This document shows, one piece after another, positions 5,290-42,331 of a stretch of DNA of 64,000 nucleotides. The notes below the pieces were generated by a model that was given only the letters and a program-made list of their open reading frames with translations, did no database searches and was not told the origin of the DNA. Numbering within the stretch: position 1 is the stretch's first letter; each line of letters begins with the position of its first letter. Location of the stretch: the NCBI GenBank assembly GCA_964445815.1, contig CAYULW010000002.1, positions 27,941-91,940 on the forward strand. The letters are read 5' to 3'. The DNA comes from an uncultured Flavobacteriales bacterium (GTDB lineage Bacteria > Bacteroidota > Bacteroidia > Flavobacteriales_E > Vicingaceae). The position numbers and the translations under genes were made by a program.

Positions 5290-6390
5290 CTATTTACCCA
5301 ATTCGTCTAAAAATTTGGCATGTCCGGCCAATGCTTCTCTAAAGCTTGGAGTATTGTGATACGGTAAGTTAAACTCTGCTGCTGTTTGCTTTACAATCTT
5401 CGCGATTGCTTTATAGTGAATATGGCAAATATTGGGGAATAAATGGTGTTCGATCTGAAAATTTAATCCTCCTACAAACCAGGATAACAAACGGTTATTA
5501 TTTGCAAAATTGGCAGTTGTCAGCATCTGATGTGTCGCAGCATCATTTTCCAATTCCTTGTCATCGTTTAAAGTAGGATAAGAAGTAGAAGGAATAACAT
5601 GAGCACATTGAAAGATGACCCCTAATATTAAACCGGCTAAAAAATGCATGAAAAACCAACCTGATACAATATAATACCAAGGGAGTTCAATAAGATAAAG
5701 CGGTAAGAAAAGAAAGACTGTAAAATAGATGATCTTACGAAAAATCAAAGCAGTAAGTTCCTTCCGATAACTTTTACCTTGTGCTTTCAATAATCCCATT
5801 CTATTGAACCTGGGCAGTTGACCAAAATCTTTAAAAGTAACCCAGATAAAGGTCATCAATCCGTAAAAAAACCAGGCATAATAAGCTTGGTATCTGAAGA
5901 ATGGTTTCAGAGGTTGATTGGGAGAAAACCGCATTACTCCAGATGGGCTGATGTCTTCATCGTATCCGTCTATGTTGGTATAGGAATGGTGTAAGACATT
6001 GTGTTGTATTTTCCAGTTAATGGTGGAACCAGCAACAAAGTTCAGGGTAGCTTGCCCTATAAAGTTATTGACCTTCTTACTCTTGGATAAAGATCCGTGA
6101 CAGGCATCATGCATTACTCCAAGCCCCATTCCTGCAATACCAATTCCCATTAGTAACCAAAGGCCATAAAAAATGAAAAGATTAAATGAAGTCCCGTAGA
6201 GGAGCAAAATAATAAACGGAGCGAGATAGAGAAGTGGCATTGCAAAGACCTTGATCCATATTCGATAGTCACCTGTTTTCGATTTATTGTTGGTTTTAAA
6301 GTAATCATTTACGCGTTTTCTCACAGTAGATCCAAATCCACTTTTTGGATTGCTCGCAAATTTTGGTGCTTGAAAGGATGTCTTTTCCAT
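5290..6390 (-). CDS. membrane fatty-acid desaturase family protein
   Basis: Three histidine boxes HDACHGS, HNVLHHSYTN and QIEHHLFP, with 4+ TM helices. Confidence 0.8.
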   Translation of the reverse strand: MEKTSFQAPKFASNPKSGFGSTVRKRVNDYFKTNNKSKTGDYRIWIKVFAMPLLYLAPFIILLLYGTSFNLFIFYGLWLLMGIGIAGMGLGVMHDACHGSLSKSKKVNNFIGQATLNFVAGSTINWKIQHNVLHHSYTNIDGYDEDISPSGVMRFSPNQPLKPFFRYQAYYAWFFYGLMTFIWVTFKDFGQLPRFNRMGLLKAQGKSYRKELTALIFRKIIYFTVFLFLPLYLIELPWYYIVSGWFFMHFLAGLILGVIFQCAHVIPSTSYPTLNDDKELENDAATHQMLTTANFANNNRLLSWFVGGLNFQIEHHLFPNICHIHYKAIAKIVKQTAAEFNLPYHNTPSFREALAGHAKFLDELGK

Positions 6391-6554
6391 GGAACTAGTT
6401 CACAATGTTAGATAAACGTTTGCTTAAAATAGTTCTTTTTGGTAGGCAGAGGATATGTTGTTTCCGTCGATAAGGACGGCCAGATTAAGATTTGTTGTCA
6501 TGTTCAATTGGAATAAAAAACGGCCATCATAAATGATGACCGTCTTACTAATTC

Positions 6555-6746
6555 CTAAACTTGTTTAACATCTATTGCATTCAGGCCTTTCTGACCTTGC
6601 TTAGTTTCAAATGTGACATGATCCATTTCATTAATTTGATCAACTAATCCTGATCTGTGAACAAATATGTCTTCTTTAGACTCTTCATCTGTAATAAAAC
6701 CGAATCCTTTTTCAGTATTATAAAATTTTACTATTCCTTTTTTCAT
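6555..6746 (-). CDS. cold-shock protein (CspA family)
   Basis: 63 aa. MKKGIVKFYNTEKGFGFITDE...IFVHRSGL. RNP1/RNP2 motifs KGFGFI and VFVH-like are present. Confidence 0.9.
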   Translation of the reverse strand: MKKGIVKFYNTEKGFGFITDEESKEDIFVHRSGLVDQINEMDHVTFETKQGQKGLNAIDVKQV

Positions 6747-6979
6747 TTTTGATTATTTTGAGTGTTTAATTTGTTTTTGTCTTTTTGAGCCTCTTCTTCT
6801 TTAGAAAGTGTTTTATTCTCAGGAGCGCTAGACCAATCTATTTCGGGTTCCGAACTGGAATTCTCTCGTCTTTGTTCCTTTTTTTCTTTCTTCATCTGTT
6901 TTTTTCTTGTTCTTTCTTTTTCTCTTTGTTTTTTTAGAAATGTATCTTGTGATCTTGCCATAAATTGATTGTAAAGCAC
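6743..6979 (-). CDS. hypothetical Lys/Glu-rich small protein (possibly non-coding csp leader)
   Basis: 78-aa ORF with ATGA overlap with csp. Low-complexity K/E/R composition; no recognisable domain. Confidence 0.25.
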   Translation of the reverse strand: MLYNQFMARSQDTFLKKQREKERTRKKQMKKEKKEQRRENSSSEPEIDWSSAPENKTLSKEEEAQKDKNKLNTQNNQK

Positions 6980-7239: not shown

Positions 7240-8412
7240 TCAAATCTCGTCAAGAAGTGATTTAATAAGCTTCACTCCTTCAGAAATCTCCGTGTTTTTT
7301 ATGTTTAATGGAGGCGCAATGCGAAAAGCATTGGGCGTAGACAAGAACCAGAACAGTAAAAGGCCTTTATCCAAGGCTTGTAAAACCACTTTTTGAACCA
7401 GCTCTTCATTGTCGAGTTCTACAGCCAACATCAAACCGAGTTGACGAGTGGCTTTTATTTTAGGATGCTTTAACTGATCTGCCATCAACTGCGCTTTTGC
7501 ACCAATTTGTTGGAGCAAATTCTGACGTTTTAATTCTTTTAAACCGGCCGCCGCAGCTGCACAAACTACCGGATGCCCCCCAAAGGTGGTAATGTGTCCT
7601 AACATGGGATTTGTACTGAGTTTATCCATTAGCTCTTTTCGCGTAATTAGAGCGCCAATAGGCATGCCTGCTCCCAAAGCTTTACCTGAAGTCAAAAGAT
7701 CAGGAATGATGTCAAAATGTTCGAAAGCCCAAAACTTACCGGTTCGGCCCATGCCACATTGAATTTCATCCAAAGCTAACAATGCCCCGGTTTCATTGCA
7801 TCGTTCTCTTAAGGCTTTCATGTAAGTTTTAGAAGGGATTCGGACGCCTGCATCACCCTGCACGGTTTCTAAGATCACACCTGCTGTTTTATCAGTAATG
7901 AACTTCAGATCTTCAATTTCATTGAGTCGAATGAAGCGAATGTTAGGTAGCAAAGGCCTAAACGGACTCTTCTTCAATTCTTTATGACTAATGCTAAGTG
8001 AACCATGCGTACTGCCGTGATAGCTGCCTTCAAAGGCAATAATCTCTGAACGTCCACTTGCTCTTTTCATGAGCTTTAGGGCGGCCTCATTGGCCTCAGT
8101 ACCACTGTTCACAAAGTAATAGGCGTCCAAACTGTTTGGAAGTATTTCACTCAGTTCCTTAGCCAGTTCGTTTTGTGCTTCTTGCTCAAACTCTCCGTAG
8201 ACCATCACATGTAGGTGTTTGTCAACTTGAGTTTTGATGGCTGTTTTAACGGCTTCGTTTCCATGTCCTAAAGCACTGACGGCTATACCGGATATAAAAT
8301 CCAGATAGGCTTTGCCTGAAGTATCATAAATGTATGCACCTTCAGCATGACTGACTTTTATACCAAAGGGGAAGGGGGTAGTTTGGGCTAAAGCTTTAAA
8401 CCACTCAGACAT
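7240..8412 (-). CDS. class-III PLP aminotransferase (aspartate aminotransferase family; ArgD/GabT-like)
   Basis: 390 aa. SGTEANEAALKLMKRASGRSEIIAFEGSYHGST... LLALDEIQCGMGRTGKFWAFEHF... TSGKALGAGMPIGA (PLP-lysine region). Confidence 0.8.
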   Translation of the reverse strand: MSEWFKALAQTTPFPFGIKVSHAEGAYIYDTSGKAYLDFISGIAVSALGHGNEAVKTAIKTQVDKHLHVMVYGEFEQEAQNELAKELSEILPNSLDAYYFVNSGTEANEAALKLMKRASGRSEIIAFEGSYHGSTHGSLSISHKELKKSPFRPLLPNIRFIRLNEIEDLKFITDKTAGVILETVQGDAGVRIPSKTYMKALRERCNETGALLALDEIQCGMGRTGKFWAFEHFDIIPDLLTSGKALGAGMPIGALITRKELMDKLSTNPMLGHITTFGGHPVVCAAAAAGLKELKRQNLLQQIGAKAQLMADQLKHPKIKATRQLGLMLAVELDNEELVQKVVLQALDKGLLLFWFLSTPNAFRIAPPLNIKNTEISEGVKLIKSLLDEI

Positions 8413-8415
8413 TTG

Positions 8416-9366
8416 CTAACGGTCAAGTAAACGTTTGGCAGCCGCCACAATACTGGAACTCCCTAAGCCATATTTTTCAAATAGTTCCTCCGGTTTTCCG
8501 CTTTCGCCAAATTGGTCATTCACCGCAACCATTTCCATAGGGGTAGGAAGTTTTCGAGCTAGAAGCTGTGCGACACTGTCACCCAATCCTCCATGCATTT
8601 GATGTTCTTCGGCAGTTAATACTTTGCCTGTTTTTGCTGCAGAATTTAAAATGGCTTCTTCGTCCAATGGTTTGATGGTATGAATATTAATGACCTCGAC
8701 ACTTTTACCTTCTTCTTCTAATGCCTCTGCTGCTTTTAGACTTTCCCAAACAGAATGCCCTGTTGCTATAATAGTCAAGTCTGTTCCTTTTTGGAAGGTT
8801 ACCGCTTTGCCAATTTCAAAGCTTTGATCTTCAGGAGTAAATACCGGCCATTTTGGTCTTCCAAATCTCAGGTAAACAGGGCCTTCATGTTCTGCAATGG
8901 CAATCGTTGCGGCTTTGGTTTGGTTATAATCACAGGGGTTAATGACGGTCATTCCCGGTAACATTTTCATCAAACCAATATCTTCTAGGATCTGATGGGT
9001 AGCTCCGTCTTCACCCAAAGTTAAACCGGCATGAGAAGCACATATTTTTACATTTTTACCGCTATAAGCAATCGATTGGCGAATCTGGTCATAGACTCGA
9101 CCTGTTGAGAAATTAGCAAAGGTGCCTGTAAATGGTATCTTCCCTCCAATGGTCATTCCGGCGGCAACACCCATCATGTTGGCTTCCGCTATTCCTGCCT
9201 GAAAGAAACGATCCGGAAATTCATTTTTAAACGCATCCATTTTAAGTGAACCTGTTAAATCAGCGCACATGGCCACTATATTGGGGTTGCGTTTTCCGGC
9301 TTCGAGTAATCCTGCTCCAAATCCTGAGCGTGTATCTTTCTTTTCAGTGAAGGAATATTTTGCCAT
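8416..9366 (-). CDS. transketolase, C-terminal (pyrimidine-binding) subunit
   Basis: 316 aa. [25 protein letters not shown]... [14 protein letters not shown]... typical of split transketolase subunit B. Confidence 0.85.
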
Positions 9367-9368
9367 AA

Positions 9369-10751
9369 TTAAAGTTTTACTTGGGTACTTTGACCTGAAA
9401 TAATTTTAAATGCTTCTTCTTTTGTGTAGACACTTAGTTTGGAATTGGCAGGGCGATAGACCACCTTATAATTGCCGGGCTGAAGGGTAATGGATTGTCT
9501 GCTGATATTTTCAGCCAGATTACATACCCATACTAATTCATCACCTTCTTGCATAAAAACAGCTCCATAACCATTGGCACTTATACCTATAGATACGATT
9601 CCGGCTTGAGGAATTTCTACTGTGGTGGTATTGCTTTGAGCAATGTTAACATCATTGACGTAGGTTCTGGGTAAGGTGAGAATCTCCAAATCGTATTTGC
9701 CAACAATATAGCGTTGTTTCATGTCAAAGTCCTGAATCACCATGGTTTCTTCTTCACCTTGTTTTCTCACTATGGCCTTCAGGTCTTTGTATTCGTTAAA
9801 GCCATTCATTTTTAAAACCAGATCACCTTGTGGGGCATCAAGAGCGATCACATTGTGTTTACCTGCTTCTAAGGTAATGCCTTTTTTCTCTACGGGTGGA
9901 ATGCTATGCACTACCAAGTCGTATGAACCAAGCGGATCTATTGGAATGGTATCCGGATTCCCTCTGGAGTCTATGGTGTGGATAAAATTATATCGAACCG
10001 CTTTTGTATGACTGTCATAAAAAGTCATGGCGACATTGGTTTCGGTAGGTTTGTTGAGTATGTCCAATAGGTTAACCTGTGCAGTGGTATTATTCAAAGC
10101 TTGAGAAATCACGATGCCTAAGACATTCTTAAAGGTTTCTTCATTTTTTGCATCGTAAAAATTACCAACACATTTAAAGGCATCCATCACTTGAGGGTCA
10201 AGACCTAAGCCAATGACAAAAGGTTTAAGGATAACACCTCTTTTCTGTAAGGCTAAAGAAACGGCACAAGGGTCCCCGTCACATTCTTCTATGCCATCGG
10301 TAATCAGTATAATAACATTTCGGCAGTTGTCACATGGTGTAAAATCATTCGCTGCCTGTTCTAATGAATAGGCAATAAGTGTTGTGCCTTTAGGACGAAT
10401 GGCGTTGAGTCTGGTTTTAATCTGAGCATGGTTGTTTTTAGAGAAGGGCACTTCGAGCTTGGTGTCTTTACAATTTCTGCCGTCTGAGGTTACAGAATAC
10501 TGATGACCGTAGGCTCTAAGAGCCAGTTCAATATTGTCTACTCCTTTCAAGCTGTCTACGAGTTCTCTTAGAAGTCTGGTTGCCACTTGCATTTTAGAAC
10601 CTCTTTCCCATCTGGCGTACATGCTTTGTGAGCCGTCAAAAACAAATAGAATTCTCGTTTTCTGAGCCTGATTTTGTTGTGAAAAAGCAAAAGAAGAACC
10701 AAGGAACAGGAGTAAGAAGAAGAAGTGTTTAAATTGCTGTTTCATGTTCAT
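9369..10751 (-). CDS. secreted von Willebrand factor A (vWA) domain protein
   Basis: 460 aa. Signal peptide. MIDAS motif [11 protein letters not shown]. ...[12 protein letters not shown]. Long beta-rich C-terminal region. Confidence 0.7.
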
Positions 10752-11787: not shown

Positions 11788-12885
11788 ATGGCCTTAAAAT
11801 GCGGTATTGTCGGTTTGCCAAATGTGGGTAAATCCACCCTTTTTAATTGTTTGTCGAACGCGAAAGCACAGTCTGCCAATTTCCCTTTTTGTACGATAGA
11901 ACCTAATATTGGGGTTATCACAGTGCCGGATGAGCGACTGAATCAATTGGCAGATATGGTAAAGCCGGAGAACATAGTGCCGACCACGATTGATATTGTT
12001 GACATTGCCGGATTGGTGAAAGGAGCAAGTAAGGGTGAAGGTTTAGGCAATAAGTTTTTGGGCAATATCCGTGAAACGGATGCCATTATTCATGTTTTAC
12101 GCTGTTTTGACGATGGCAATGTTGTGCATGTTGACGGCTCTGTTGATCCGGTTAGAGATAAGGAAACGATTGACTTCGAGTTGATTTTAAAAGATCTGGA
12201 AACCATAGAAAAGCGACTGGAGAAAATCAATAGAGCAGCGAAGACAGGAGATAAAGAAGCCAAAAAAGTACAAGAGATATTGAATCGCTATAAAACACAT
12301 CTGGAAGCAGGACATTCAGCACGTTCTATGGAATTGGGCGAGGATGAGCAGAAGGCTGTCGGGGATTTATTTCTGTTGACAGAGAAACCGGTTCTGTATT
12401 TATGCAATGTAGACGAATCATCTGTCAATGCAGGAAATGAACATGTGGAGGCAGTGAAAACTGCAGTGGCTAATGAAAAGGCCGAGGTGTTGATGGTTGC
12501 CGCCGGTTTAGAGGCTGAAATCGCCGAATTGGAAGATGCTGAAGAAAGGCAATTGTTTTTAGAAGATGCAGGGCTTAGTGAACCTGGAGTGAATAAACTG
12601 ATCAGAGGAGCATATTCATTGCTGAATTTACAAACCTATTTTACTGCTGGGAAAAAAGAGGTGCGCGCCTGGACCATTAAAAAGGGAATGACAGCACCTC
12701 AAGCCGCAGGAGTCATTCACACGGATTTTGAGCGTGGATTCATTAAAGCTGAGGTCATTAAGCTGAAAGATTATCTGGAATTGGGTTCGGAACAAGCCGT
12801 AAAAGAAGCCGGTAAAATGAGCATGGAAGGGAAGGACTATGTGGTTGAAGATGGTGATGTGATGTTGTTTAAGTTTAATGTCTAA
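11788..12885 (+). CDS. ychF: redox-regulated ATPase YchF (Obg-family GTPase)
   Basis: 365 aa. MALKCGIVGLPNVGKSTLFN... G1-G4 motifs and C-terminal TGS domain. Confidence 0.95.
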   Translation: MALKCGIVGLPNVGKSTLFNCLSNAKAQSANFPFCTIEPNIGVITVPDERLNQLADMVKPENIVPTTIDIVDIAGLVKGASKGEGLGNKFLGNIRETDAIIHVLRCFDDGNVVHVDGSVDPVRDKETIDFELILKDLETIEKRLEKINRAAKTGDKEAKKVQEILNRYKTHLEAGHSARSMELGEDEQKAVGDLFLLTEKPVLYLCNVDESSVNAGNEHVEAVKTAVANEKAEVLMVAAGLEAEIAELEDAEERQLFLEDAGLSEPGVNKLIRGAYSLLNLQTYFTAGKKEVRAWTIKKGMTAPQAAGVIHTDFERGFIKAEVIKLKDYLELGSEQAVKEAGKMSMEGKDYVVEDGDVMLFKFNV

Positions 12886-12896
12886 GTCCATCTATT

Positions 12897-15455
12897 ATGG
12901 TTAAGGCATTATCTATACTGTTTCTATCTGTTTGTATTGCTTTACAGGCGATTGCCCAAGAAATTCCTTTTACCGAAGTGCCTGAATGGGTTGAGCAAAA
13001 AGACTTTGAAACGCTTGAGGTAGAAGAGGGGATTGGTGATATCAGGTATAATCTGATTCAGGTCGAAACCAATATTATTGAAAAGCTGAAGTTCAAGCGA
13101 TTGGCTTATCAATTGCTTAATCTTGATGCCCTTGAATCCAGTTCGACAATACAATTAAATTTTGATCCTGCATTTGAGCAACTGGAAATTCATTCAGTTG
13201 ATTTGATCAGAGATGGAGTTAGAACGGATAAAACCAATAATGTATCGGTTGAGGTCTTAAAAAGAGAAGAAAACCTTGAGAGCAATTTATATGATGGAAG
13301 TTTAACTGTCATTATCAGACTTGAAGACGTTAAGGTTGGAGATGTGATTGACTATTCTTATTCAAGAAAAGGGTTTAATCCCATTTTTGGAGCTAACTTC
13401 TCGGCTGTCTACGATCTTGAATTCAGTAATCAAGTTGATCATTACTTCCTAAAAATTATAAAAGATAAAGGCACCAAACTAAATATTCAAAGGTTAAATG
13501 GTGCTATAGAACCTGAGGTTAAAAGTGGTGATTTTGAGGAGTTAATATGGTCCAAGAAAAACATTGAACCTGTACTTTATGAGGTCAACACACCAAATTG
13601 GTATTACCAGCATAAATTCATCCGACTTTCTACTATTAATAACTGGTCCGAGTATATAGACTGGGCTTCCAAACTCTATCGGTACACCACGAATGTTTCA
13701 ACTATGGCGCTTGAGATTAGTGATAAAGAGGGTAAGGAAGAGCGATTGAATGATTACATAAGGTTTGTTCAGGATAAAGTGAGATATCTTGGTTTGGAGT
13801 CAGGCATTGGCGCTTATAAACCAAATCCGCCGGAAAAAGTATATAAACAACTTTATGGAGATTGTAAAGACAAGTCCCTATTGTTGATTTCCTTATTGAG
13901 ACATGAAGGTCTTGAGGCTTATCCCATATTGGTCAATACAAATTCAGGAGAGATTTTATCTTCAAGTCTTCCGCTTAATCAATCCTTCAATCATTGTGTA
14001 GTGGGATTTAATTATGACAACACAGACTTTGTCGTAGATCCAACGATTTCTTTTCAGGGTGGACAACTTAGTAATAGGCATCAACCCAATTTTCATTATG
14101 GTTTGGCTATTTCTGATCGCTTTGATGAGCTAATAGAAATAGATGAAAAGAATTTTGGAAAACTATCCATTAAAGAAGACATAAAAATGGATTCTGTGGG
14201 AGGAAATGCTTTCTTTTCAGTTGAATCTGAATATACAGGTTCTGTAGCGGATAACATCAGGGAGTATTTTTTGACAAGCTCAAAATCTGATATAGAAGAT
14301 TCTTATCTCAACTATTACAGCAGCATTTATCCGAGTATAGAACTGGTGAAGGATATTGAGTTTAATGATGATTATGAAAGCAATAGAGTCATCATTAAGG
14401 AAGATTATTACCTTCCTGAGTTTTGGGAGTACAATGAAGAAGAGGGTTATTACAGCTGTTACAGCTATCCTTTGGTCTTAGATTCCTATCTGGATTTTCC
14501 AAAATCGGCCAAGCGAGAAATGCCTTATGCTTTAGGTAATAAAATTAATTTTGAACAGGAAACTACGGTTCACTTGCCTCAGGAATGGGAGTTTATGGAG
14601 TTTAATGATACGTATTCAGACTCCGTATTTACGTATACCAGTATTGCCAAAAGAATTAGTGATGATAAGTTGTCTTTGGTGCATCAATTTCAATTGCATA
14701 AACCTCATGTTAGCGCGAGTGATTATGATCAATTTCAAAGCAAAATAGCAGACATTAAGGGTGATCTCACTTATTCTTTTACACATACCGGAGAAGATGT
14801 TGACGACTTTAGTCGAACTGATTTTGCCCCATCACTCTTCATTTTGGTTTTGATTGGTTTGTGGGTCTGGTTGGCAAGAAAGCTATACATCAGTTACAAT
14901 CCTCTTTCGAGAGCCAACTCCAGTTTTTCTTATGACTCTATTGGTGGATGGATGATTCTTCCCCTTATCGGTTTGTTCATTAGCCCCTTAAGAATGTTGT
15001 ATGATATATATGATATTGGCTATCTCAATGCAGCCACTTGGAATTATGTATACTCTTCAGGGGGAAGCATTGGCTTTTTCCTTTTCTTTATTGTAGAATG
15101 TTTGTTAAACATCGGCTTTCTTGTGTTCTCCATATTACTGTTGACTCTATTTTTTAAACGGAGGACCTCATTACCGAATTTATTCTCTATTTATTTGATT
15201 ACCAATTTTGTATTTCTGCTTTTAGATGCTTTTATCTCTTCTGAGATCTATGAAATTCCAATGGAGAAGACAGAAACAAAAGCTTTGGTTCGGATGTTCA
15301 TTGGCGCATGCATATGGGTGCCTTATTTTCAATTCTCTGAAAGAGTTAAAGACACCTTTGTCAATCTGCATGGATCGATTCCGGAAGAAGGCAAGCAGTT
15401 GATTGAAGAAGCAGGCGATGAAGATAAGTCAGAGGTTAAGGATGTTTTACCTTAA
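12897..15455 (+). CDS. DUF3857 + transglutaminase-like cysteine-protease domain protein with C-terminal polytopic membrane domain
   Basis: 852 aa. Signal peptide. Transglutaminase core Cys/His/Asp (YGDCKDKSLLLISLL, FNHCVVG, FVVDPT). About 6 TM helices in the last 200 aa. Confidence 0.7.
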   Translation: MVKALSILFLSVCIALQAIAQEIPFTEVPEWVEQKDFETLEVEEGIGDIRYNLIQVETNIIEKLKFKRLAYQLLNLDALESSSTIQLNFDPAFEQLEIHSVDLIRDGVRTDKTNNVSVEVLKREENLESNLYDGSLTVIIRLEDVKVGDVIDYSYSRKGFNPIFGANFSAVYDLEFSNQVDHYFLKIIKDKGTKLNIQRLNGAIEPEVKSGDFEELIWSKKNIEPVLYEVNTPNWYYQHKFIRLSTINNWSEYIDWASKLYRYTTNVSTMALEISDKEGKEERLNDYIRFVQDKVRYLGLESGIGAYKPNPPEKVYKQLYGDCKDKSLLLISLLRHEGLEAYPILVNTNSGEILSSSLPLNQSFNHCVVGFNYDNTDFVVDPTISFQGGQLSNRHQPNFHYGLAISDRFDELIEIDEKNFGKLSIKEDIKMDSVGGNAFFSVESEYTGSVADNIREYFLTSSKSDIEDSYLNYYSSIYPSIELVKDIEFNDDYESNRVIIKEDYYLPEFWEYNEEEGYYSCYSYPLVLDSYLDFPKSAKREMPYALGNKINFEQETTVHLPQEWEFMEFNDTYSDSVFTYTSIAKRISDDKLSLVHQFQLHKPHVSASDYDQFQSKIADIKGDLTYSFTHTGEDVDDFSRTDFAPSLFILVLIGLWVWLARKLYISYNPLSRANSSFSYDSIGGWMILPLIGLFISPLRMLYDIYDIGYLNAATWNYVYSSGGSIGFFLFFIVECLLNIGFLVFSILLLTLFFKRRTSLPNLFSIYLITNFVFLLLDAFISSEIYEIPMEKTETKALVRMFIGACIWVPYFQFSERVKDTFVNLHGSIPEEGKQLIEEAGDEDKSEVKDVLP

Positions 15456-16845: not shown

Positions 16846-17652
16846 TTATTTTCTCCAGATTACTTTGCTATTGTGCAAATCTATGCTCTTCATGCTTTCT
16901 AATTCTGAAAGTTGTTTGAGAAGGTCTAAATTAATCAGGCCATCAGAGATAAACAATGTGTTTAAACTCTTGGGAAAATCATCTGGTAATGTGTCAATGA
17001 TAACATGGTTCAAAGACACTTTTTCTAATTGTTTAAACCTTGATAAATCTTCCCATTGAAGAGCGCTTGGTTTATTTCCTATAAAATGAACCTCTTTTAA
17101 GTGCTTAAAGGAGGAATCACCAAGATGAATATGCTGACAAAATTGGATATTCACATGCTCGATGGCTGTTTGCGCATACAACTGCTCTATGTTTGTGAGT
17201 TGATCTGAATAACTGATGCGCAGTATTTTGAGTTGAGGCAATGGCCCTTGTATGTATAAGGTATCATTTTGGAAACCCGAAATAGATAGTCTTTCCAGAT
17301 TTTGCATTTGAGGCAAATGAGATAGATCTTTAATCGACGTACTGCTAATGTGCAAAGATTTGACCTTATTCCAATTGTTCTGAGAAAAGGTTTTAGGCAA
17401 GGCACTTAGATTCAGGTTTAGGTGTAATTCCGGTGTGGAGTTCAAGTGAACGAGTCGAGATAAATCAGTAGTAGAGTCAATATCTATGGCTCCAAAGTAA
17501 CAGTATTGATCTGCCTTTATGCAGTTTTTGATTTGTGTAGAATCAATGTTATTGAGATTGCCGACTACTTTATCAACCCATCCCGGTTGTGCTTTTATGG
17601 AGCAATAAGTCAGAACAATCAAACTTAGACTAATAAATGATTTGATCTTCAT
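16846..17652 (-). CDS. secreted leucine-rich-repeat (LRR) protein
   Basis: Track ORF 16846..17670; probable start at MKIKSFISLSLIVL. LRR-like periodicity: LHLNLNLSALP, LHISSTSIKDLSHL, LERLSISG, LKILRISYSDQLTNIEQL. Confidence 0.55.
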   Translation of the reverse strand: MKIKSFISLSLIVLTYCSIKAQPGWVDKVVGNLNNIDSTQIKNCIKADQYCYFGAIDIDSTTDLSRLVHLNSTPELHLNLNLSALPKTFSQNNWNKVKSLHISSTSIKDLSHLPQMQNLERLSISGFQNDTLYIQGPLPQLKILRISYSDQLTNIEQLYAQTAIEHVNIQFCQHIHLGDSSFKHLKEVHFIGNKPSALQWEDLSRFKQLEKVSLNHVIIDTLPDDFPKSLNTLFISDGLINLDLLKQLSELESMKSIDLHNSKVIWRK

Positions 17653-17745
17653 GAGGTAGTTTTGAGGCATTCACTTGTCCCATTACCATTATTGTGCCGT
17701 AAATTCTAGATTGATGATACTATTGATTTATCAGTACTTCGGTTT

Positions 17746-18249: not shown

Positions 18250-18276
18250 TTATAGCCTTGTTGAGTATTCTTGTTT

Positions 18277-18933
18277 TTAATTTCCTCCCAATTGCTTAAT
18301 CAGCTTAGCTGTTTCAATAAAATTTGCTGCTTCCGCCATCGATAAAACGGTTTGTCCATTATCCATTATTGAGTTAATGTTCGCCCCATTGTCAACAAGT
18401 AGCTGCACTAACTTTGTTTGCCCATTGTGAGCAGCTGAATGAAGTGGAGTAACACCATGCATTTGCTTGGCATTCACATCAGCTTCATATTGTATCAGGA
18501 GTTTTGCCATTCTCAGGTTTGAGGTAGCACAAGCTGAATGGAGTGGAGTAACTTTGAATTGGTTATTTGCCGCAGCATTCGGATCGGAGCCTTTTTCAAG
18601 CAGTTCTTGGGCTAAGTTTAGATGACCGAAAAATGCAGCAAGCCCTAATATGTTAAAACCGTCAGACGAATAAGCATTTAATAGGTCCGGGTTTTCATTT
18701 AAATGTTGTTTCACTTTTTCAACTTCTCCTAAAGTAGTTGCTTCAAAAATATCAAGTACAGCTTTGTGTTCTCTTAGAATCTGAATTGCTTCAGCATTTC
18801 TACAATAAGCGGCAAATTGCAATATTGAAATTCCTTGTTCTGTCTTACTGTTAGCAAGTGAAGAGTCTTGGTTCAGTTTATTTGCTAAGCGATTATTCTC
18901 TCCTGTTTTAATAAGTTCAATCAGCTCTTTCAT
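18277..18933 (-). CDS. ankyrin-repeat protein
   Basis: 218 aa. Repeated TPLHSA...G...LV.LL...GA(D/N)VN motifs (at least 4 ANK repeats). Confidence 0.8.
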   Translation of the reverse strand: MKELIELIKTGENNRLANKLNQDSSLANSKTEQGISILQFAAYCRNAEAIQILREHKAVLDIFEATTLGEVEKVKQHLNENPDLLNAYSSDGFNILGLAAFFGHLNLAQELLEKGSDPNAAANNQFKVTPLHSACATSNLRMAKLLIQYEADVNAKQMHGVTPLHSAAHNGQTKLVQLLVDNGANINSIMDNGQTVLSMAEAANFIETAKLIKQLGGN

Positions 18934-21931: not shown

Positions 21932-21940
21932 ATTAGGTAC

Positions 21941-22145
21941 AACGTTCTGTGTATGGGCAGTAGGGACAGATTCGAAGTGCTTCACTTTCGGTTTGCCACT
22001 AAGCCTAAACAAACGTTTTTACTTTTAATTTATATTTCAATAAACGTCAGAACTTTGTTTTGGCGTTACCTGCTCAAAGAACAGGATTTTCAATTTTCAC
22101 CAAACGCCCTATTGGCTATACACCTTGTTGTAGCACGTTTTCTTT
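21941..22145. repeat. ~205-bp intercistronic element with imperfect terminal inverted repeats, copy 1
   Basis: About 85% identical to 30331..30536. Termini TGTGTATGGGCAGTAGGGC ... GCCCTATTGGCTATACACC are mutual reverse complements (12/18). Internal arm GCCAAAACAAAG / CGTTTGTTT(A/T)GGC. Spans from gene A1's last codons to ~10 nt before the B1 start codon. Confidence 0.8.
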
Positions 22146-22853
22146 TATTTTTTCTTTTAGATTAGTTTTCTCTGTGCTAAGCGATTGCTCAGAAACACCC
22201 ATTTTACTAATCGAAACTCGGAAGAGTCTTCCATTATTAACTACAAAAAAGATTTGTCCATTAATTATTTCAATTCCCTTATGAGTTTTTGAATAGTCGT
22301 ATTGAATGGCTCTATTCTTAATGGTGACCTTCTTATTGCTGAACTGATAGCCACTTGAAAACTGATTACCTTCTAATGTCTCGACTACTGACTTGGAGTA
22401 TTTTTCTAAATTTTCAATCTCTTTTTTGTCTTCTTCTTTGAATGTTACTATTAAATCATTCGTTGAGTCAGCTATAAGGAGCATTGGTTCTTCCGAATTA
22501 TTGTCATAAACTACATCTGAAGGGAGATTAATCTTGAAGTCAAAAAAATCAATTACTGTATCAGCTTTTGTAGTGTCCGCCTTTTTTAACAGATATTCAA
22601 TAACTCCTTTATATTCAGATAACGCTTCATCAGGGTTAATTGGGGTACTATCTTGCTTTATTATGATTTCTTGAGATTGTGATTCATTTACCTTAGAAAG
22701 TGAAATTACTCCAAGAATTAGCCCTGTAGCAAGCAACCCAAGCCCTGACCACAACAATCCTTGTTTTTTTTTCTTAGAGTAGGTGACTAAAAGGCCAATT
22801 CCTGCAACTGCAATAATTATATAGTTTAATAAATCTCCAATGTTCTGAAACAT
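22116..22853 (-). CDS. hypothetical membrane-anchored protein (gene A1 of repeat module I)
   Basis: 245 aa. Two N-terminal TM helices. The last 9 codons are encoded within the repeat element. Confidence 0.55.
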   Translation of the reverse strand: MFQNIGDLLNYIIIAVAGIGLLVTYSKKKKQGLLWSGLGLLATGLILGVISLSKVNESQSQEIIIKQDSTPINPDEALSEYKGVIEYLLKKADTTKADTVIDFFDFKINLPSDVVYDNNSEEPMLLIADSTNDLIVTFKEEDKKEIENLEKYSKSVVETLEGNQFSSGYQFSNKKVTIKNRAIQYDYSKTHKGIEIINGQIFFVVNNGRLFRVSISKMGVSEQSLSTEKTNLKEKIKENVLQQGV

Positions 22854-22886
22854 ATTCTGCTTGTCTTTAATGTGCTACAACATCAA

Positions 22887-22906
22887 AATAAACGGAATTC
22901 CGTTTA
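22887..22906. promoter_or_regulatory. 20-bp perfect palindrome ATAAACGGAATTCCGTTTAT (candidate operator), copy 1
   Basis: Exact palindrome, 33 bp upstream of the gene A1 start codon. The identical 20-mer (plus 3 flanking nt) recurs at 31218..31237 in the same relative position. Confidence 0.5.
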
Positions 22907-23139
22907 TTTCTACAGTCGTAAAACTACAGAATATCACTAAGCTTCATTTTGGGAATTCCTCTTCGACTGCGGGAATGTGAATGAACTTTAGAAAGTCGGT
23001 AATAAGGGTAATGAGCTCTTGTTTGGATGCCAATGTCATAAAATCTAAGATAAATTTACGACTTTGGAGACCTTTTATAGGACATTAACTTTCAAAAGAT
23101 AAGGTTTTTAGAGGCTCTTAATGTTCCGGATTACTTTGT

Positions 23140-26541: not shown

Positions 26542-26594
26542 CTTATGTCGTTTTTCTTAGTAGCAGCATTTGCTATATACAGTTTTGGGCATAG

Positions 26595-27293
26595 TTATTT
26601 AATTTCAATTTTCTTCGATTCAAACCCTTTTGGTAGTTCTGGTTTGAAAAGATCGTGATTTACAATTATTTCTCCCTGTTTCTTCGCTTTTACTTTCAAT
26701 GTGTAGATGTGTTCTTCGGTTAATTTTCCATCACTAGCTTCACTAGAACTAGAGTATGAAGAACCCAATTGACTCAGAAAAGAGTTGTCTTTGATTCTAA
26801 TTTTATCAATTACGAATGAAGAGAAATCATCAAGTGTTATTTCATTTAAATTCATTGAGGAAGGGCTTAGGTCAGTGTTACTCTTTATAACAATTGAAAA
26901 CTCTTGACCCTTCTTTACAGATTCAGGAGTAATTATTGAAACTACGGTATCTGAAATTTCATTTACAATAGTTGCTTCAACTATATCTATTTCCAGCTGA
27001 TTTGATTCTAAATCAATGCTATCAATACTCAACTTATATGGTCCAATCGTCTTTCTACCTGAACTCGTGTAGATCACAACAATTCTCTTTTTAAACTCTG
27101 TGATATCTATTACAGTTATATCGTCACCAAGAAGGCTTGAGAGCTCTCCTTCAATTGCCTCAACGGATAACTCCAATTCAATGTTCTCACCAACTTCAAA
27201 AGTTGTATTATCACTCATTAAACTCAATTTAAGGTTCTGTCCCTCAACATTGATAAAGTTTGAAATAAGAAATGTGATGATTAAGATCCTCAT
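26595..27293 (-). CDS. hypothetical secreted protein
   Basis: 232 aa. Signal peptide. Ser/Ile-rich, beta-strand-like periodicity. Confidence 0.45.
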   Translation of the reverse strand: MRILIITFLISNFINVEGQNLKLSLMSDNTTFEVGENIELELSVEAIEGELSSLLGDDITVIDITEFKKRIVVIYTSSGRKTIGPYKLSIDSIDLESNQLEIDIVEATIVNEISDTVVSIITPESVKKGQEFSIVIKSNTDLSPSSMNLNEITLDDFSSFVIDKIRIKDNSFLSQLGSSYSSSSEASDGKLTEEHIYTLKVKAKKQGEIIVNHDLFKPELPKGFESKKIEIK

Positions 27294-27341: not shown

Positions 27342-28667
27342 TTAGCATTTCTTTATTTCGTTCATACGTTTAATCGCTTCTGGCTCACCTTTTTCGACAG
27401 CTTTCTTCAAGTATTTCATTCCTTTTTCTATTTCATCTTTTTTGATAAGAAAATTAGCGTAATGTAACTCCAAAAGGTCAACTGGAAAAGTTTCGGATTC
27501 AAAAGCCAATTGGAAATGGTACTCGGCTTGTTCTAATTCATTTTTAGCTAGATGATACAAAGCTAAGTTTCTGTACGTATAGGCATTGTCATTGTTTTCT
27601 GTTTTTAATGCTTTTTCAAGTTGTTGTCTTCCTTCTTCCAATTGTTCCATTTGGATTAAGGAATATCCTAAATTGTCATATGCAAAACCATAATTTGGGT
27701 TTATTTGAAGTGCTTTATGAAAATTTTGAGTGCTCTGTTCATAGTTGCCATTTCTCAATTGATAATACCCAATATTGTTATAGACGTCAGCTTTTAGCAA
27801 TTCATCTTCGGTTAAAAGCAAGATTTTTTGAAGAGTATTAATAGCTGAATCAAAATCAGCATTTTGGTATTCCTTGTCTGCTTGATCAAATAAATCATTA
27901 GCCTCCAATTCAGCTTTACTAAAAACTACCGAAGGTGATTTATTTAGAAAAGCTATAGCTCCTTCAAATTGAAGTCTAAGCTCTTTGGGTAATTCATTTT
28001 TCCAATCTGGATTGTCTTGTTCAATTAGCTTTGAAAAGGTCGCTAATCCAAAAGCCATTACTTCATTTGCCATTTCAGAAACGTAGTTCCATTTGGTTTC
28101 CCAAAAGCCGTCATCAGTTCTTCCTCTGTCCGTTAAGTTTTGAGAAAGTGGGATTCCAAAGCCGAAATAAATTCCTGCTATAAATATAAATAGGGGGGTA
28201 TCATCTCCTGTGTCGTATTGCAATTTGTTTTCAGTTAGTCGAATTTTAATGAATTCATAAATGAGGTTGAATACGAGTCGGTTTGGTCGATTAGAAATGC
28301 TTTTAGCAATGTGTATTTTGTAATTATTCTCGGTTACTTCTGTTTCAGTTTCAAACGGCTTGCCTTGCATTTCAAATGGTATTCCATAGACATCTCGTAA
28401 ATCCTTGTGTAGCTCATACGCAACTTTACTAGAGTCTAAGCTTAGCAAGTTGCATAGGTCGTCAATCAGATTTTTGACTTCTAAGTCACTAGTCGAAAAA
28501 GTCTTTGGAAAGAATTTTTCTGTAATAAGAATTTGTTCACTTTGTGTACTGGGATAGCCAAAAATTTTAATCAGCCATTTAAAATTATCCTCAACCCAAT
28601 CTCTATTTGTTTCTGTTATTCGAAACTTTGGCTCTTTTGCTTTCTTATTGAATCCGAATAATTTCAT
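27342..28667 (-). CDS. TPR-repeat protein with ~280-aa N-terminal domain of unknown function
   Basis: 441 aa. C-terminal TPRs (VYNNIGYYQLRNGNYEQSTQNFHKALQINP, AYDNLGYSLIQ..., TYRNLALYHLAKNELEQAEYHF). Confidence 0.6.
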   Translation of the reverse strand: MKLFGFNKKAKEPKFRITETNRDWVEDNFKWLIKIFGYPSTQSEQILITEKFFPKTFSTSDLEVKNLIDDLCNLLSLDSSKVAYELHKDLRDVYGIPFEMQGKPFETETEVTENNYKIHIAKSISNRPNRLVFNLIYEFIKIRLTENKLQYDTGDDTPLFIFIAGIYFGFGIPLSQNLTDRGRTDDGFWETKWNYVSEMANEVMAFGLATFSKLIEQDNPDWKNELPKELRLQFEGAIAFLNKSPSVVFSKAELEANDLFDQADKEYQNADFDSAINTLQKILLLTEDELLKADVYNNIGYYQLRNGNYEQSTQNFHKALQINPNYGFAYDNLGYSLIQMEQLEEGRQQLEKALKTENNDNAYTYRNLALYHLAKNELEQAEYHFQLAFESETFPVDLLELHYANFLIKKDEIEKGMKYLKKAVEKGEPEAIKRMNEIKKC

Positions 28668-28729
28668 TTTATTTAATTAACCTTAATGACCCCTGTATGA
28701 TGCCGTTGCGGTTTTGATAAATATACAAT

Positions 28730-28759
28730 TTGAGGTTTAGAACCAAGTAAAAACCTCAA
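28730..28759 (-). terminator. possible hairpin terminator (TTGAGGTTT-N12-AAACCTCAA)
   Basis: 9-bp stem found by eye ~120 nt downstream of the 28877 gene stop, followed on the minus strand by ATTGTATATTTATC. A second palindrome AAAATCCGCTAGCGGATTTT lies at ~28783. AT-rich stems, so weak. Confidence 0.25.
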
Positions 28760-28876
28760 AGCGGTTTTGATTCTTTGCTTTTTTACAAAATCCGCTAGCG
28801 GATTTTGCGAGGCTTCAAATAGCTTTACGAATTGCCAAAATACCATACCCACAATGCACTATATAGCCTGTTGTGC

Positions 28877-29503
28877 CTAGTTTATTTTAAGTTCTATAGT
28901 TGCAGTTGAGTCAGAACATTCAATCTCATCCGCTGCAGGATCATCTTCTTCTAGCTCTAAATCTAAATGACAAGTCTCGATGTATTTATTAATCTTAACT
29001 GACTCTTTTGTTAAACTTACAACAGAATATGTGACTTGAGAGTCACCTGCGTCTCCCCAAATTTCAGCAATCTGTTCACTTTCTTTGATCATATTCTCGC
29101 CCGAATTATATATCATGCCGTAGTATATAGGTCCATAATCGTCTTGTTGAACAACGACTAAGAAGAAGCTACTATCATTAACTTTTAACTTGCCTACTGG
29201 CTTTGCACCTGTTGACTCAGATTGCGTTTGCGGGATTTTATTGTCAAGCACAGGAAGAAATGTCAAAGGAAGACAATCACTTGGTTTAAAGGTTCTTTCT
29301 TGTGTGTATTGTTCCACTACAATTTTTATTGAGTCTTTTGGGAAATCATTGAAGTAGGAGGTTATGTCAGTATTAATCTCAACTTCTTCTATTGATTCAA
29401 TAAATTCAACAATGTCTTTATTAATAGTATCACTTGTATCGCTGTCCAATTGTCCACATGAAGCCAAAATGGCTAAACCGAGTATTACCAATAGTTTTTT
29501 CAT
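28877..29503 (-). CDS. hypothetical lipoprotein
   Basis: 208 aa. Lipobox LAILASCGQ. Confidence 0.5.
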   Translation of the reverse strand: MKKLLVILGLAILASCGQLDSDTSDTINKDIVEFIESIEEVEINTDITSYFNDFPKDSIKIVVEQYTQERTFKPSDCLPLTFLPVLDNKIPQTQSESTGAKPVGKLKVNDSSFFLVVVQQDDYGPIYYGMIYNSGENMIKESEQIAEIWGDAGDSQVTYSVVSLTKESVKINKYIETCHLDLELEEDDPAADEIECSDSTATIELKIN

Positions 29504-29587
29504 TCTCTCAAATTAGCCCCAACGGTCTGGCTAAAATGTCGTGCAACAGTTAGATTGTTGGGGCATACACTATAGCCGTTGTTGGAG

Positions 29588-30316
29588 CTAGTGGTTTTTA
29601 TTTTCTTCTTCATTTTTCAATCTCATTATGAACCATTCAAATCCATAAAGTCCTTCAAGGTTCTTTGGAATTTCGTTCAAGTCAGTTTTTTTTCCTGATT
29701 TAAAGTCAGTCAATATAATATGTTCATGTGTTCTATCATTCCATTCGTAAGAATTCAAAGTGTCCAACTTGTTTTTTGTCCATTTGAACTCATAAAACTC
29801 GGTTTGTCCGGGATGTCCGTAGGTCATGCTGTAAGTCCGAAATTGATTTGGGTAGAATGTCGGGTTTGGTATTTCCACTTTTTTTGAAAATTGATCGTTA
29901 TTGTCATCATATAAGTAGCAGTCATAAATATCTGCTAAACAACAACCTGAGGAAGGATACCAATGGATAGCCAAATCAATCACTTTGTCACCGTTAATGT
30001 CGAAAATCGAATCTGACATAAAATTCATCCAACCAAGTCTTTCGGAAAATATTGGTTTTTCATATTCGTCCTTCTCAGAGTACACTTGAATGTAGGTGCC
30101 TGAAAAGTTTGAAAGTCGTATATACTTGTGATTAATTGAGTTTGAGAAAATATGACCTTCCTTTAGAGTCAAAGAGTCATTTTTTATGTTTTCTTTTTGA
30201 CTTTGAATCAGTTTTGTAATTGTTACTGTCGTTTTAAGACTGTCTTGATCGACTTGACAAAAACCAAATTCTGCAAGTCCTAAAATGATTGATATGGTTA
30301 ATAGTGTTCTGGTCAT
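29588..30316 (-). CDS. hypothetical secreted protein (gene B2 of repeat module II)
   Basis: 242 aa. Signal peptide MTRTLLTISIILGLAEFGFCQ. The start codon lies ~14 nt downstream of the repeat element. Confidence 0.5.
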   Translation of the reverse strand: MTRTLLTISIILGLAEFGFCQVDQDSLKTTVTITKLIQSQKENIKNDSLTLKEGHIFSNSINHKYIRLSNFSGTYIQVYSEKDEYEKPIFSERLGWMNFMSDSIFDINGDKVIDLAIHWYPSSGCCLADIYDCYLYDDNNDQFSKKVEIPNPTFYPNQFRTYSMTYGHPGQTEFYEFKWTKNKLDTLNSYEWNDRTHEHIILTDFKSGKKTDLNEIPKNLEGLYGFEWFIMRLKNEEENKNH

Positions 30317-30330
30317 TTTACATTAATCCC

Positions 30331-30536
30331 AACAGTTTGTGTATGGACAGTAGGGCAGGTACGAAGCACTTCACTTTCGGTTTACCACTAAGCCAAAACA
30401 AACGTTTTTACTTTTAATTTTCTTTTTTGTTAAACGTCAAAACTTTGTTTTGGCGTTGCCTGCTCAATGAACAGCACTCTCAATTTATTATTAATTGCCC
30501 TATTGGCTATACACCTTGTTGGTAGCAGTTTTTTTT
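30331..30536. repeat. ~205-bp intercistronic TIR-bearing element, copy 2
   Basis: Aligns end to end with 21941..22145 (about 85% identity). Same termini (TGTGTATGGACAGTAGGGC ... GCCCTATTGGCTATACACC). Begins at the gene A2 stop codon and ends ~14 nt before the B2 ATG. Confidence 0.8.
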
Positions 30537-41428: not shown

Positions 41429-42331
41429 ATGAAAACATTGATATTAATGTTTTTCTTATCTGTTTCTCTATCAATCTTTACGCAGAATTATATTCCTATG
41501 CCTGATGCAAATGCGGTATGGCGAGAAAGCTCAGGAATTAGCTTTTATAATTGTCGAGAATATAATTACGTGATTGATGGAGATACAATCATTAACCGCA
41601 ATACCTACCATAAACTTAGAAATGTTGGCTACGAAGCTAGTTATCACCCAAGTTTTTGTAATCAAGTATTATTTTGGTTTAATGATTATGTTGGGTGCTT
41701 TCGAAATGATAGCGCAAATAGAATAGTTTACTATGTTCCCACCGGCCAAACAATTGAAAGAAAACTTTTTGATTTTAATGCAAACGCAGGTGACACATTA
41801 AGAAATCTCTATGTTTATCCTTCAAACGGACGAGATACTTCATTTGTAATAGCTAGGGTTGATTCTATTTTGTTGAATAACAATTATCATAGAACATACC
41901 ACGTGCAAGGCTGTAACCCTTTCCCTAGATATTCCGATTCAATATTTTTTATAGAAGGAATTGGTAGCAATCATGGATTTCTCCCTAATTATGAATGTGC
42001 TGGTTATTGGTTTACAAGTTTAAATTGTGTTAAAGAAAATAACATAACAATCTATGGTGCCACAGGCCAATGCAATATTTTAACAGAAATTGAGGCACAT
42101 AAGTTTGAACAAGGCGTTTCAATTTCACCCAATCCAAGTTCCGGTATAGTGAATATCGAAACATCAAAATCAATAGAGAGCATTCAGATTTACAATATGC
42201 ACGGTCAGATGGTTAAACGGATCGAAAATCCTAAAGAACAAATTGTATTACCTAAAGAACAGGGCTTGTATTTGCTGCAGATTGAGGATGTAGAAGGAAG
42301 AGTTTATACAAAGAAAATAGTGAAACAATAA
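41429..42331 (+). CDS. secreted protein with T9SS C-terminal sorting domain
   Basis: 300 aa. Signal peptide. C-terminal SISPNPSSGIVNIETSKSIESIQIYNMHGQMVKRI...LYLLQIE... is a T9SS CTD nearly identical at DNA level to the upstream gene. Confidence 0.7.
   Translation: MKTLILMFFLSVSLSIFTQNYIPMPDANAVWRESSGISFYNCREYNYVIDGDTIINRNTYHKLRNVGYEASYHPSFCNQVLFWFNDYVGCFRNDSANRIVYYVPTGQTIERKLFDFNANAGDTLRNLYVYPSNGRDTSFVIARVDSILLNNNYHRTYHVQGCNPFPRYSDSIFFIEGIGSNHGFLPNYECAGYWFTSLNCVKENNITIYGATGQCNILTEIEAHKFEQGVSISPNPSSGIVNIETSKSIESIQIYNMHGQMVKRIENPKEQIVLPKEQGLYLLQIEDVEGRVYTKKIVKQ

Follow-up and report, generated by a model that had tools for sequence, protein, structure and literature searches.

The window analysed here, a 64-kb stretch of DNA from an uncultured Flavobacteriales bacterium, carries several copies of an element of ~205 bp, and we conclude with good confidence that each such element serves a mobile single-gene cassette as its recombination site, playing an attC-like role in a rAID-like platform of Bacteroidota served by a Xer-like tyrosine recombinase. 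This reading draws on the structure of the element and its strand asymmetry, on cassette boundaries and on brackets that pair across each cassette, and on arrays that lie next to the recombinase in other genomes, all of which were observed.

An earlier note on this DNA had pointed out two copies of the element, W1 and W2, aligning end to end at about 85% identity between unrelated genes. Both statements hold: blastn aligned 21940-22147 with 30330-30537 at 85.4% identity over 212 columns, the likeness ends abruptly beyond both edges of the alignment, and the proteins encoded on the flanks show no kinship between the copies (E = 0.6 and 0.095). A larger segmental duplication, the event that could have undone the claim, is contradicted by the differing genes. 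The imperfectly complementary termini noted at that time were also recovered, with four matches against 0.13 expected. The neighbouring genes are on the minus strand throughout, as are all long ORFs from ~16.8 to 36.2 kb. The functional unit is slightly longer than first stated (21934-22136 for W1, 30324-30527 for W2), because AAC and GTT triplets and 7-nt brackets belong to it. Similarly, the element had been said to begin at or inside the stop codon of the upstream gene, which is true of W1, where the last codons of the upstream ORF and its TAG stop (22116-22118) do come from the element stem, but not of W2, where the TAA stop (30535-30537) lies 8 nt beyond the bracket. The gap between the AAC triplet and the next start codon is indeed short, measuring 9 nt for W1 and 14 nt for W2.

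The two copies are real but not alone in the window (Table 1). Using an iterated nucleotide profile, we found a diverged long-type element, W3, and separate left-end and right-end profiles revealed a short form, situated between the genes 28877-29503 and 29588-30316, together with a weak right-end remnant that had also been noticed by eye. All five lie on the same strand. In W3, AAT replaces AAC, which suggests decay, and the bracket GTTGTGCCTA has only an imperfect partner at 29514-29523; this copy is probably decaying. A 59-aa ORF listed within W3 was judged spurious, and a second supposed right-end remnant seen by eye (18250-18285) received no support from the end profiles.

Table 1. Positions of elements, cassettes and hairpin sites in the window and of associated features in other loci.
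Feature	Locus	Position	Strand	Details
Long-type element W1 (copy 1)	Window	21941-22129	+	AAC 21941-21943, GTT 22127-22129; profile 207 bits; folding (bottom) strand is plus
Long-type element W2 (copy 2)	Window	30331-30520	+	AAC 30331-30333, GTT 30518-30520; profile 233 bits
Diverged long-type element W3	Window	28672-28879	+	full-length profile match span 28657-28897; nhmmer 51 bits, E = 1.6e-14
Short-form element, ~90 nt	Window	29510-29601	+	left AAC 29521-29523, E = 0.012; right TGTT 29580-29583, E = 0.44
Possible right-end remnant (weak)	Window	26562-26606	+	end profile E = 0.14
C1 element-side bracket	Window	22127-22136	+	GTTGTAGCAC; perfect reverse complement of 22872-22881
C1 far-side bracket	Window	22872-22881	+	GTGCTACAAC; ends in AAC, the cassette end
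C1 gene, 245 aa	Window	22116-22853	-	no Pfam match; last codons and TAG inside element stem
D5a, attI-like minimal hairpin site	Window	22882-22921	+	6-nt spacer, then ATAAACGGAATTCCGTTTAT; abuts C1
C2 element-side bracket	Window	30518-30527	+	GTTGGTAGCA; pairs with 31202-31211
C2 far-side bracket	Window	31202-31211	+	TGCTACCAAC
C2 gene, 217 aa	Window	30535-31188	-	no Pfam match
D5b, second copy of attI-like hairpin site	Window	31212-31251	+	abuts C2
Group II intron	L040	~6486-6893	-	
Group II intron	L068	~8700-10463	-	
Group II introns	L038	from 3423 and 4982	+	
Group II introns	L070	from 14167 and 17137	-	
Group II intron	L069	15680-17534	-	
Divergent ~125-129-aa gene	L059	9531-9908		
Divergent ~125-129-aa gene	L060	660-1037		
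Divergent ~125-129-aa gene	L061	9534-9914		
Divergent ~125-129-aa gene	L071	9521-9901		
Divergent ~125-129-aa gene	L072	9531-9908		
Divergent ~125-129-aa gene	L068	6336-6725		
Mobile context of recombinase/array	L059	4367-8538		
Mobile context of recombinase/array	L072	5702-8508		
Mobile context of recombinase/array	L061	3274-9417		
Mobile context of recombinase/array	L068, L069			plasmids
Simple hairpin repeat	L069	10107; 12202-12239; 14583-14620; 17689		

An Rfam scan, which the earlier note had proposed, assigned the elements to no family: at gathering and at permissive thresholds alike, matches over them stayed at chance level. A scan of the window for σ70 promoters and terminators, a method ill-suited to Bacteroidota, gave background levels. 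GC content is 32-39% at 20-32 kb of the window, compared with ~37-42% in its flanks. Several further features of the window were recorded. Its sole Rfam match is a small SRP RNA of the Bacteroidales type (RF04183, 37614-37720, minus strand, 109.7 bits), which fits a Bacteroidota host. A 149-nt direct repeat of 81% identity (41215-41363 and 42123-42271) falls in the 3' parts of the adjacent genes 39903-41423 and 41429-42331, both of which encode a T9SS C-terminal sorting domain (Por_Secre_tail) and so look like tandem paralogues. Leucine-rich-repeat (LRR) and ankyrin-repeat proteins, classes that are counted as immunity proteins in heterogeneous polyimmunity loci (PMC3482391), are encoded at 16846-17670 and 18277-18933 in the same run of minus-strand genes, with no element confirmed beside them. 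A gene for an SOS-response-associated peptidase (SRAP) lies near the cassette region (33433-34155, minus strand), and another lies near the recombinase and array of L061 (1621-2271, minus strand).

The element is strongly structured. A consensus of 34 pairs, built on 28 diverse copies, has 94.2% of its cells paired, compared with 36-48% when the partners are slid, and its helix 3 is the internal 11-bp arm pair that the earlier note had picked out in the two copies. Covariation, suggested in the earlier note as a check, was found as well, with compensatory double changes in 19 of the 34 pairs and a score that none of 500 shuffles equalled. Read along the plus strand, the element consists of n7'-AAC, a 4-nt spacer, a 16-bp stem, three internal hairpins, the returning stem, a 3-nt spacer and GTT-n7, with AAC and GTT invariant or nearly so at the ends. 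A conserved T-run after the closing stem is part of an att frame that holds the stop-codon region of the cassette. Both in the window and in all arrays, the gene of the cassette is found upstream, on the strand opposite to the element. That non-coding DNA is here conserved beyond its surroundings was rightly noticed, and this DNA is both structured and tied to mobility.

The two strands of the element are not equivalent. Counted over the consensus, 93 G·T wobbles fall on the plus strand, antisense to the genes, as opposed to eight on the gene strand, and two positions of the 16-bp stem are conserved wobbles. Fold z scores for copies 1 and 2 are -5.0 and -6.8 on the plus strand and -1.6 and -4.4 on the gene strand. 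The wobble excess argues for a structure that is selected on the strand that is not mRNA. One of the two readings given in the earlier note was a cis-acting structured RNA that couples or regulates expression of the downstream gene, weighed here as a terminator, attenuator, processing site or stabiliser in a polycistronic mRNA. The element does fill intercistronic gaps on the transcribed strand, and the gene-strand RNA of copy 2 folds well, but copy 1 folds poorly as mRNA, the wobbles favour the other strand, the downstream genes are unrelated among copies and no Rfam family matches; moreover, the brackets, AAC breakpoints and recombinase link described below would go unexplained. We therefore regard a cis-acting RNA as very unlikely. 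The attC sites of integrons affect expression of downstream genes, so that the element may plausibly act at the RNA level as well, in a secondary role.

An antisense RNA would fit the strand asymmetry just as well. An independent sRNA gene of ~200 nt on the plus strand, ending in the closing stem and T-run and repeated between genes, would account for the better fold of that strand, for its G·U wobbles and for the conserved T-run. Such a gene is nonetheless highly improbable: no conserved promoter-like sequence lies 5' of the element on the plus strand, where the next gene has its variable start, the T-run is part of the att frame, and an sRNA does not account for brackets, breakpoints and intron insertions, all of them features of the DNA. 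For the recombination site that we favour, the folded bottom strand (here the plus strand) would, by analogy, be the substrate of the recombinase. The interior of the element, ~200 nt at ~95% identity across orders, exceeds what a pure recombination site would seem to need and hints at an additional or different function.

The limits of the cassette emerge from comparison between genomes. Sediminicola (L005) and Cellulophaga (L039) have in common 963 bp at 97% identity, made up of the element and exactly one gene. The homology starts right after the AAC at the plus-strand 5' end of the element and ends at an AACGTT with which the next element, a different one, begins, so that the breakpoints between genomes fall between AAC and GTT. 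In arrays, the site is split at the crossover. The GTT-n7 at the other end of the element is the reverse complement of the n7-AAC at the far end of the gene. A perfect 10-mer partner for this bracket was found for 35 of the 71 elements with room to test (49%), compared with 0.8% of controls in which flanks were borrowed from other elements, and a partner with at most one mismatch was found for 82%, compared with 12% of controls. When the cassette ends are joined in a modelled circle, the outer stem becomes a perfect 11-bp helix with a gain of 4-6 kcal/mol, and the bottom strand is more stable than the top in every folded configuration. The complete frame, which extends a few bases beyond the element and its two brackets, is kept around four unrelated genes of 245, 235, 193 and 139 aa, indicating that the brackets are part of the site. 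A naive search of the whole window for GTTn7...n7AAC was dominated by chance (10 found against ~6 expected), and only the two element-adjacent pairs are meaningful.

These boundaries also bear on the other reading in the earlier note, a MITE-like mobile element, taken here as a non-autonomous transposon in which the 205-bp unit with its terminal inverted repeats would move alone into intergenic gaps by means of a transposase supplied in trans. Imperfect terminal inverted repeats are present, and the element is multi-copy and near-identical across distant taxa, with assemblies breaking within it. Direct target-site duplications are absent, however, and the unit common to genomes includes the gene and ends at AAC. 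The inverted complementarity of the flanks spans the adjacent gene and not the element: pairing of an element's own flanks, as in a simple hairpin or TIR, leaves 4-8 mismatches in 12 positions, and pairing across the cassette is preferred. Copies are strictly co-oriented with genes in arrays, the stems show covariation between subfamilies, for which inverted repeats bound by a transposase would have no need, and the associated enzyme is a tyrosine recombinase and not a DDE or HUH transposase. An independently mobile MITE is thus extremely unlikely, and the unit that appears to move is a cassette of one gene with its site.

In the window, the two intact cassettes, C1 and C2, each abut a copy of a ~45-nt site (D5a and D5b) that consists of AAC, ~6 nt and an A/T-rich perfect hairpin. 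In many loci, terminal cassettes have a site of this class at their far junction, and the site after the stop codon of the L005 recombinase matches it; a copy 86% identical to D5a also occurs with a different cassette gene in a Cyclobacteriaceae MAG (L054, 3192-3242), the surroundings of which are distantly syntenic with the window (DUF418, AraC-like). On these grounds, we interpret D5a and D5b as attI-like hairpin sites of the chromosome, each occupied by a solo cassette. No bracket partners were found downstream of W1 and W2, as befits solo cassettes and not members of a long array. The brackets of C1 and C2 are perfect, whereas those of the middle array (W2, the short element and W3), a small older one that appears to be decaying, carry 2-3 mismatches. 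Neither a recombinase nor a transposase of any kind is encoded within the 64-kb window, and a recombinase would thus act on C1 and C2 in trans.

A D5-type site without a cassette would read AAC followed directly by ATCAAAATAAACGG... A search for such an empty site by way of the neighbouring proteins returned only contigs of the same strain, which end inside the element, and it recovered no circular junction either. Short-read contigs of the window organism (L064-L067; Logan SRR15635848/57/58) stop ~60-110 nt past the cassette genes, inside the element, as is expected of a repeat.

Copies beyond the window, the absence of which would have counted against the element, proved abundant. An exact search with the most conserved 18-mer in a species-representative genome set returned 58 loci, in Flavobacteriales, Cytophagales, Saprospiraceae, Balneolaceae and marine Bacteroidales such as Ancylomarina and Mangrovibacterium; the 18-mer was not found in a viral contig collection. 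About 50 of the 58 loci hold a full-length element (>200 bits, ~95% identity) in unrelated contexts; in all, some 55 species across Bacteroidota carry it at ~95% identity, often in co-oriented arrays. Diverged copies form co-oriented arrays at a spacing of 0.7-3 kb, with six copies in L001, five in L029 and five in L039. The gene content around the elements is almost never common between loci, and the cargo is highly heterogeneous: 77 cassette proteins matched 40 different Pfam families, and most matched none.

Individual loci offered further observations. In L038, an element of the main family is split (5921-6055 and 7813-7896) by an insertion of ~1.76 kb. In three MAGs of different orders, a homologous gene for a homocysteine S-methyltransferase (metH-like) is situated a few kb away from an element (L034 3213-6850, L047 5281-6291, L057 897-4557), which may reflect a common chromosomal hotspot or coincidence. 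A Chryseobacterium plasmid (L069) carries a different repeat, a perfect simple hairpin (GTTGGGAAAAATC...GATTTTTCCCAAC), which recurs at intervals of 2-3 kb downstream of a homologous recombinase. This repeat gave no match to the element profile and was set aside; it could represent a further family of sites within the system.

Near the arrays only one protein recurs, a tyrosine recombinase of about 372-375 aa. It is encoded directly upstream of the array in L005, L013, L059, L070 and L068, co-oriented with the cassettes, and the first GTT, which marks an attI-like site, lies ~40 nt past its stop codon. The clearest example is Maribacter sp. MJ134 (L059), where the first GTT 40 nt after the recombinase stop is followed by six perfectly bracketed cassettes, each ending in a long element; the same layout of recombinase then array was found in L005, L070 and a 15-kb Chondrinema plasmid. 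The enzyme scores above the cutoff of the NCBIfam model NF040815 ('site-specific tyrosine recombinase/integron integrase', XerA-like), but below that of the IntI model TIGR02249 (205 bits against a cutoff of 265). Its alignment with archaeal XerA (4a8e) is continuous, while IntI residues 186-241 are reduced to 14 residues in the alignment with VchIntIA (2a3v), and it has a unique N-terminal extension of ~105 aa. The family has thousands of members, mostly with generic annotation. We infer from its position that this recombinase catalyses recombination of the adjacent cassettes; since it lacks the IntI-specific insertion, its use of single-stranded DNA would be an analogy only.

Two features recur around the recombinase. 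In six loci, it is directly preceded by a conserved gene (~125-129 aa) in divergent orientation, with no Pfam match in the five loci for which precomputed results were shown and annotated as hypothetical in L068; the product may assist the platform as an accessory factor or regulate it. Recombinase and array also occur beside a relaxase, a NikA-like gene and a CTnDOT-type integrase, beside Tra genes, or on small plasmids, from which it appears that the platform is often carried on conjugative or mobilisable elements.

A Xer-like enzyme without the IntI insertion raises the alternative that the genes are flanked by inverted double-stranded Xer sites, as in the pdif modules of Acinetobacter plasmids, with no folded strand involved. 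Each gene is indeed flanked by inverted copies of a sequence of ~25 bp (stem arm, GTT and n7), and the AACGTT at the crossover is palindromic. A Xer/dif site, however, is a conserved duplex of ~28 bp with sequence-specific arms for XerC and XerD, whereas the would-be binding arms here vary and covary between subfamilies and n7 is specific to the cassette, a pattern that fits recognition of structure and not of sequence. Inverted duplex sites moreover predict inversion, but all cassettes are co-oriented, and neither the strand-asymmetric G·T pattern nor the targeting by introns would be expected of purely duplex sites. We consider duplex modules quite unlikely and favour a site that is recognised in its folded form.

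The targeting by introns concerns group II introns that lie antisense within arrays and begin with GTGTGCC at their 5' end. In L040, L068 and L070, this end is joined to the 3' end of the element's bottom strand, immediately after ...TTGT, and the L038 introns are joined to element-like stem ends; Rfam detected group II intron domains in L040 and L068. TTGT^T is the insertion motif known from integrons. Group IIC-attC introns, which lie antisense to the cassettes, enter attC on its bottom strand and can part a gene from its attC (PMC3001079). The array introns resemble them in being antisense, directly 3' of the bottom-strand stem and between gene and site, a match of geometry. This geometry suggests in vivo access to the bottom-strand stem.

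Integrons are the standard example of cassette capture, which is thought to need an IntI-specific domain that reads the folded attC. The system described here is like an integron in its single, promoterless-looking ORF followed by an imperfect-palindrome site, in the conserved AAC...GTT triplets at the ends of the site 3' of the cassette ORF, in the better folding of the strand antisense to the ORF (bottom), in its co-oriented arrays of unrelated cargo and in the group II introns antisense at the ORF-proximal end of the site. The crossover, which falls at G|TT in integrons, is likewise ORF-distal, with the first bases of the cassette complementing its own inverse core; its position was found by comparison, from the AAC breakpoints and the perfect brackets (49% against 0.8% of controls). 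The differences are equally clear. Classical attC sites span 57-141 nt and are variable in their interior, whereas the element spans ~205 nt (75-130 nt in short forms) and is highly conserved and multi-branched inside, with a cassette-specific outer stem of 10-11 bp. Strand asymmetry, which in attC stems from demonstrated extrahelical bases, derives here from conserved G·T wobbles together with an internal loop of 4x3. The recombinase has no IntI-specific insertion, possesses the ~105-aa N-terminal region and is co-oriented with the cassettes, whereas intI is divergent, with attI and the Pc promoter in between. Given no IntI-specific domain, a co-oriented recombinase and a site about twice the length of attC with a conserved interior, the system is integron-like, but not an integron by definition. 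According to IntegronFinder surveys, Bacteroidetes are essentially devoid of integrons (PMC9024848).

The closest published concept is the rAID-1 or polyimmunity locus of gut Bacteroidales, rAID-1 denoting recombinase-associated acquired interbacterial defence (Ross et al., bioRxiv 10.1101/471110; 10.1101/2025.05.03.651265; Zhang et al., PMC3482391). Its architecture is present in L005, L059, L070 and L068, with at least two co-oriented downstream genes at a GC content of at most 41% in L005, L059 and L070. Repeats lie between genes in the loci found here; for rAID-1, conserved repetitive intergenic motifs are described, the MEME sequences of which are not given in the text. By contrast, rAID-1 has been published only in Bacteroidales, while the loci found here are mainly from Flavobacteriales, Cytophagales, Saprospirales and Balneolales, and the window has no recombinase. 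rAID-1 is also defined by immunity-gene cargo; here, no dominant immunity family was seen, with most cassette proteins lacking a Pfam match and no Imm or SUKH family among the 25 listed Pfam families. The rAID-1 and polyimmunity papers give no site anatomy, crossover, strand or cassette limits (10.1101/471110; 10.1101/2025.05.03.651265; PMC3482391). Our literature search, with subscription journals outside its coverage, found no description of such a system outside Bacteroidales. Finally, the element is like MITEs and the REP/ERIC palindromes in being a short, structured, multi-copy intergenic repeat with inverted termini, but differs from them in that it shows no target-site duplication, travels with a gene and forms ordered arrays tied to a tyrosine recombinase.

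A mechanism consistent with these results can be proposed. Each cassette spans from the end of one AAC to the end of the next. Because its far-end n7-AAC exactly complements GTT-n7, the hairpin of an excised circle would be closed by an outer stem of 10-11 bp without mismatch. The array recombinase would cut between AAC and GTT on the folded, single-stranded bottom strand, cassettes would leave as circles, and these putative intermediates would enter either short attI-like sites (AAC, ~6 nt and a hairpin) or other elements. In the window, the solo cassettes C1 and C2 would have been placed in this manner at the two copies of the D5 hairpin site.

More tentatively, and with rather less assurance than the assignment of the element itself, we consider it possible that this is a second integron-type system of gene capture, perhaps of independent origin, which uses a Xer-like recombinase without the IntI I2 domain but with a unique N-terminal extension and very large folded single-stranded sites, extends throughout a phylum that is regarded as almost integron-free, places solo cassettes in trans and includes the gut rAID-1 as one branch. 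If so, single-gene cassettes are stockpiled on chromosomes, ICEs and plasmids throughout Bacteroidota, and solo cassettes are dropped in trans at terminator-like hairpins far from any recombinase. Our finding points to a parallel platform across the phylum, with a different recombinase and a much larger site that lends itself to precise modelling. The element explains why metagenome assemblies of these taxa break at these repeats, and a model of its sequence and structure would permit automatic annotation of thousands of cassettes, solo ones included. The finding would also supply a mechanistic anatomy, in terms of site, strand, crossover and cassette limits, for the ecologically important rAID and polyimmunity arrays of gut and marine Bacteroidota, and would offer a natural test of whether single-strand hairpin recombination has arisen more than once among Xer-like enzymes.
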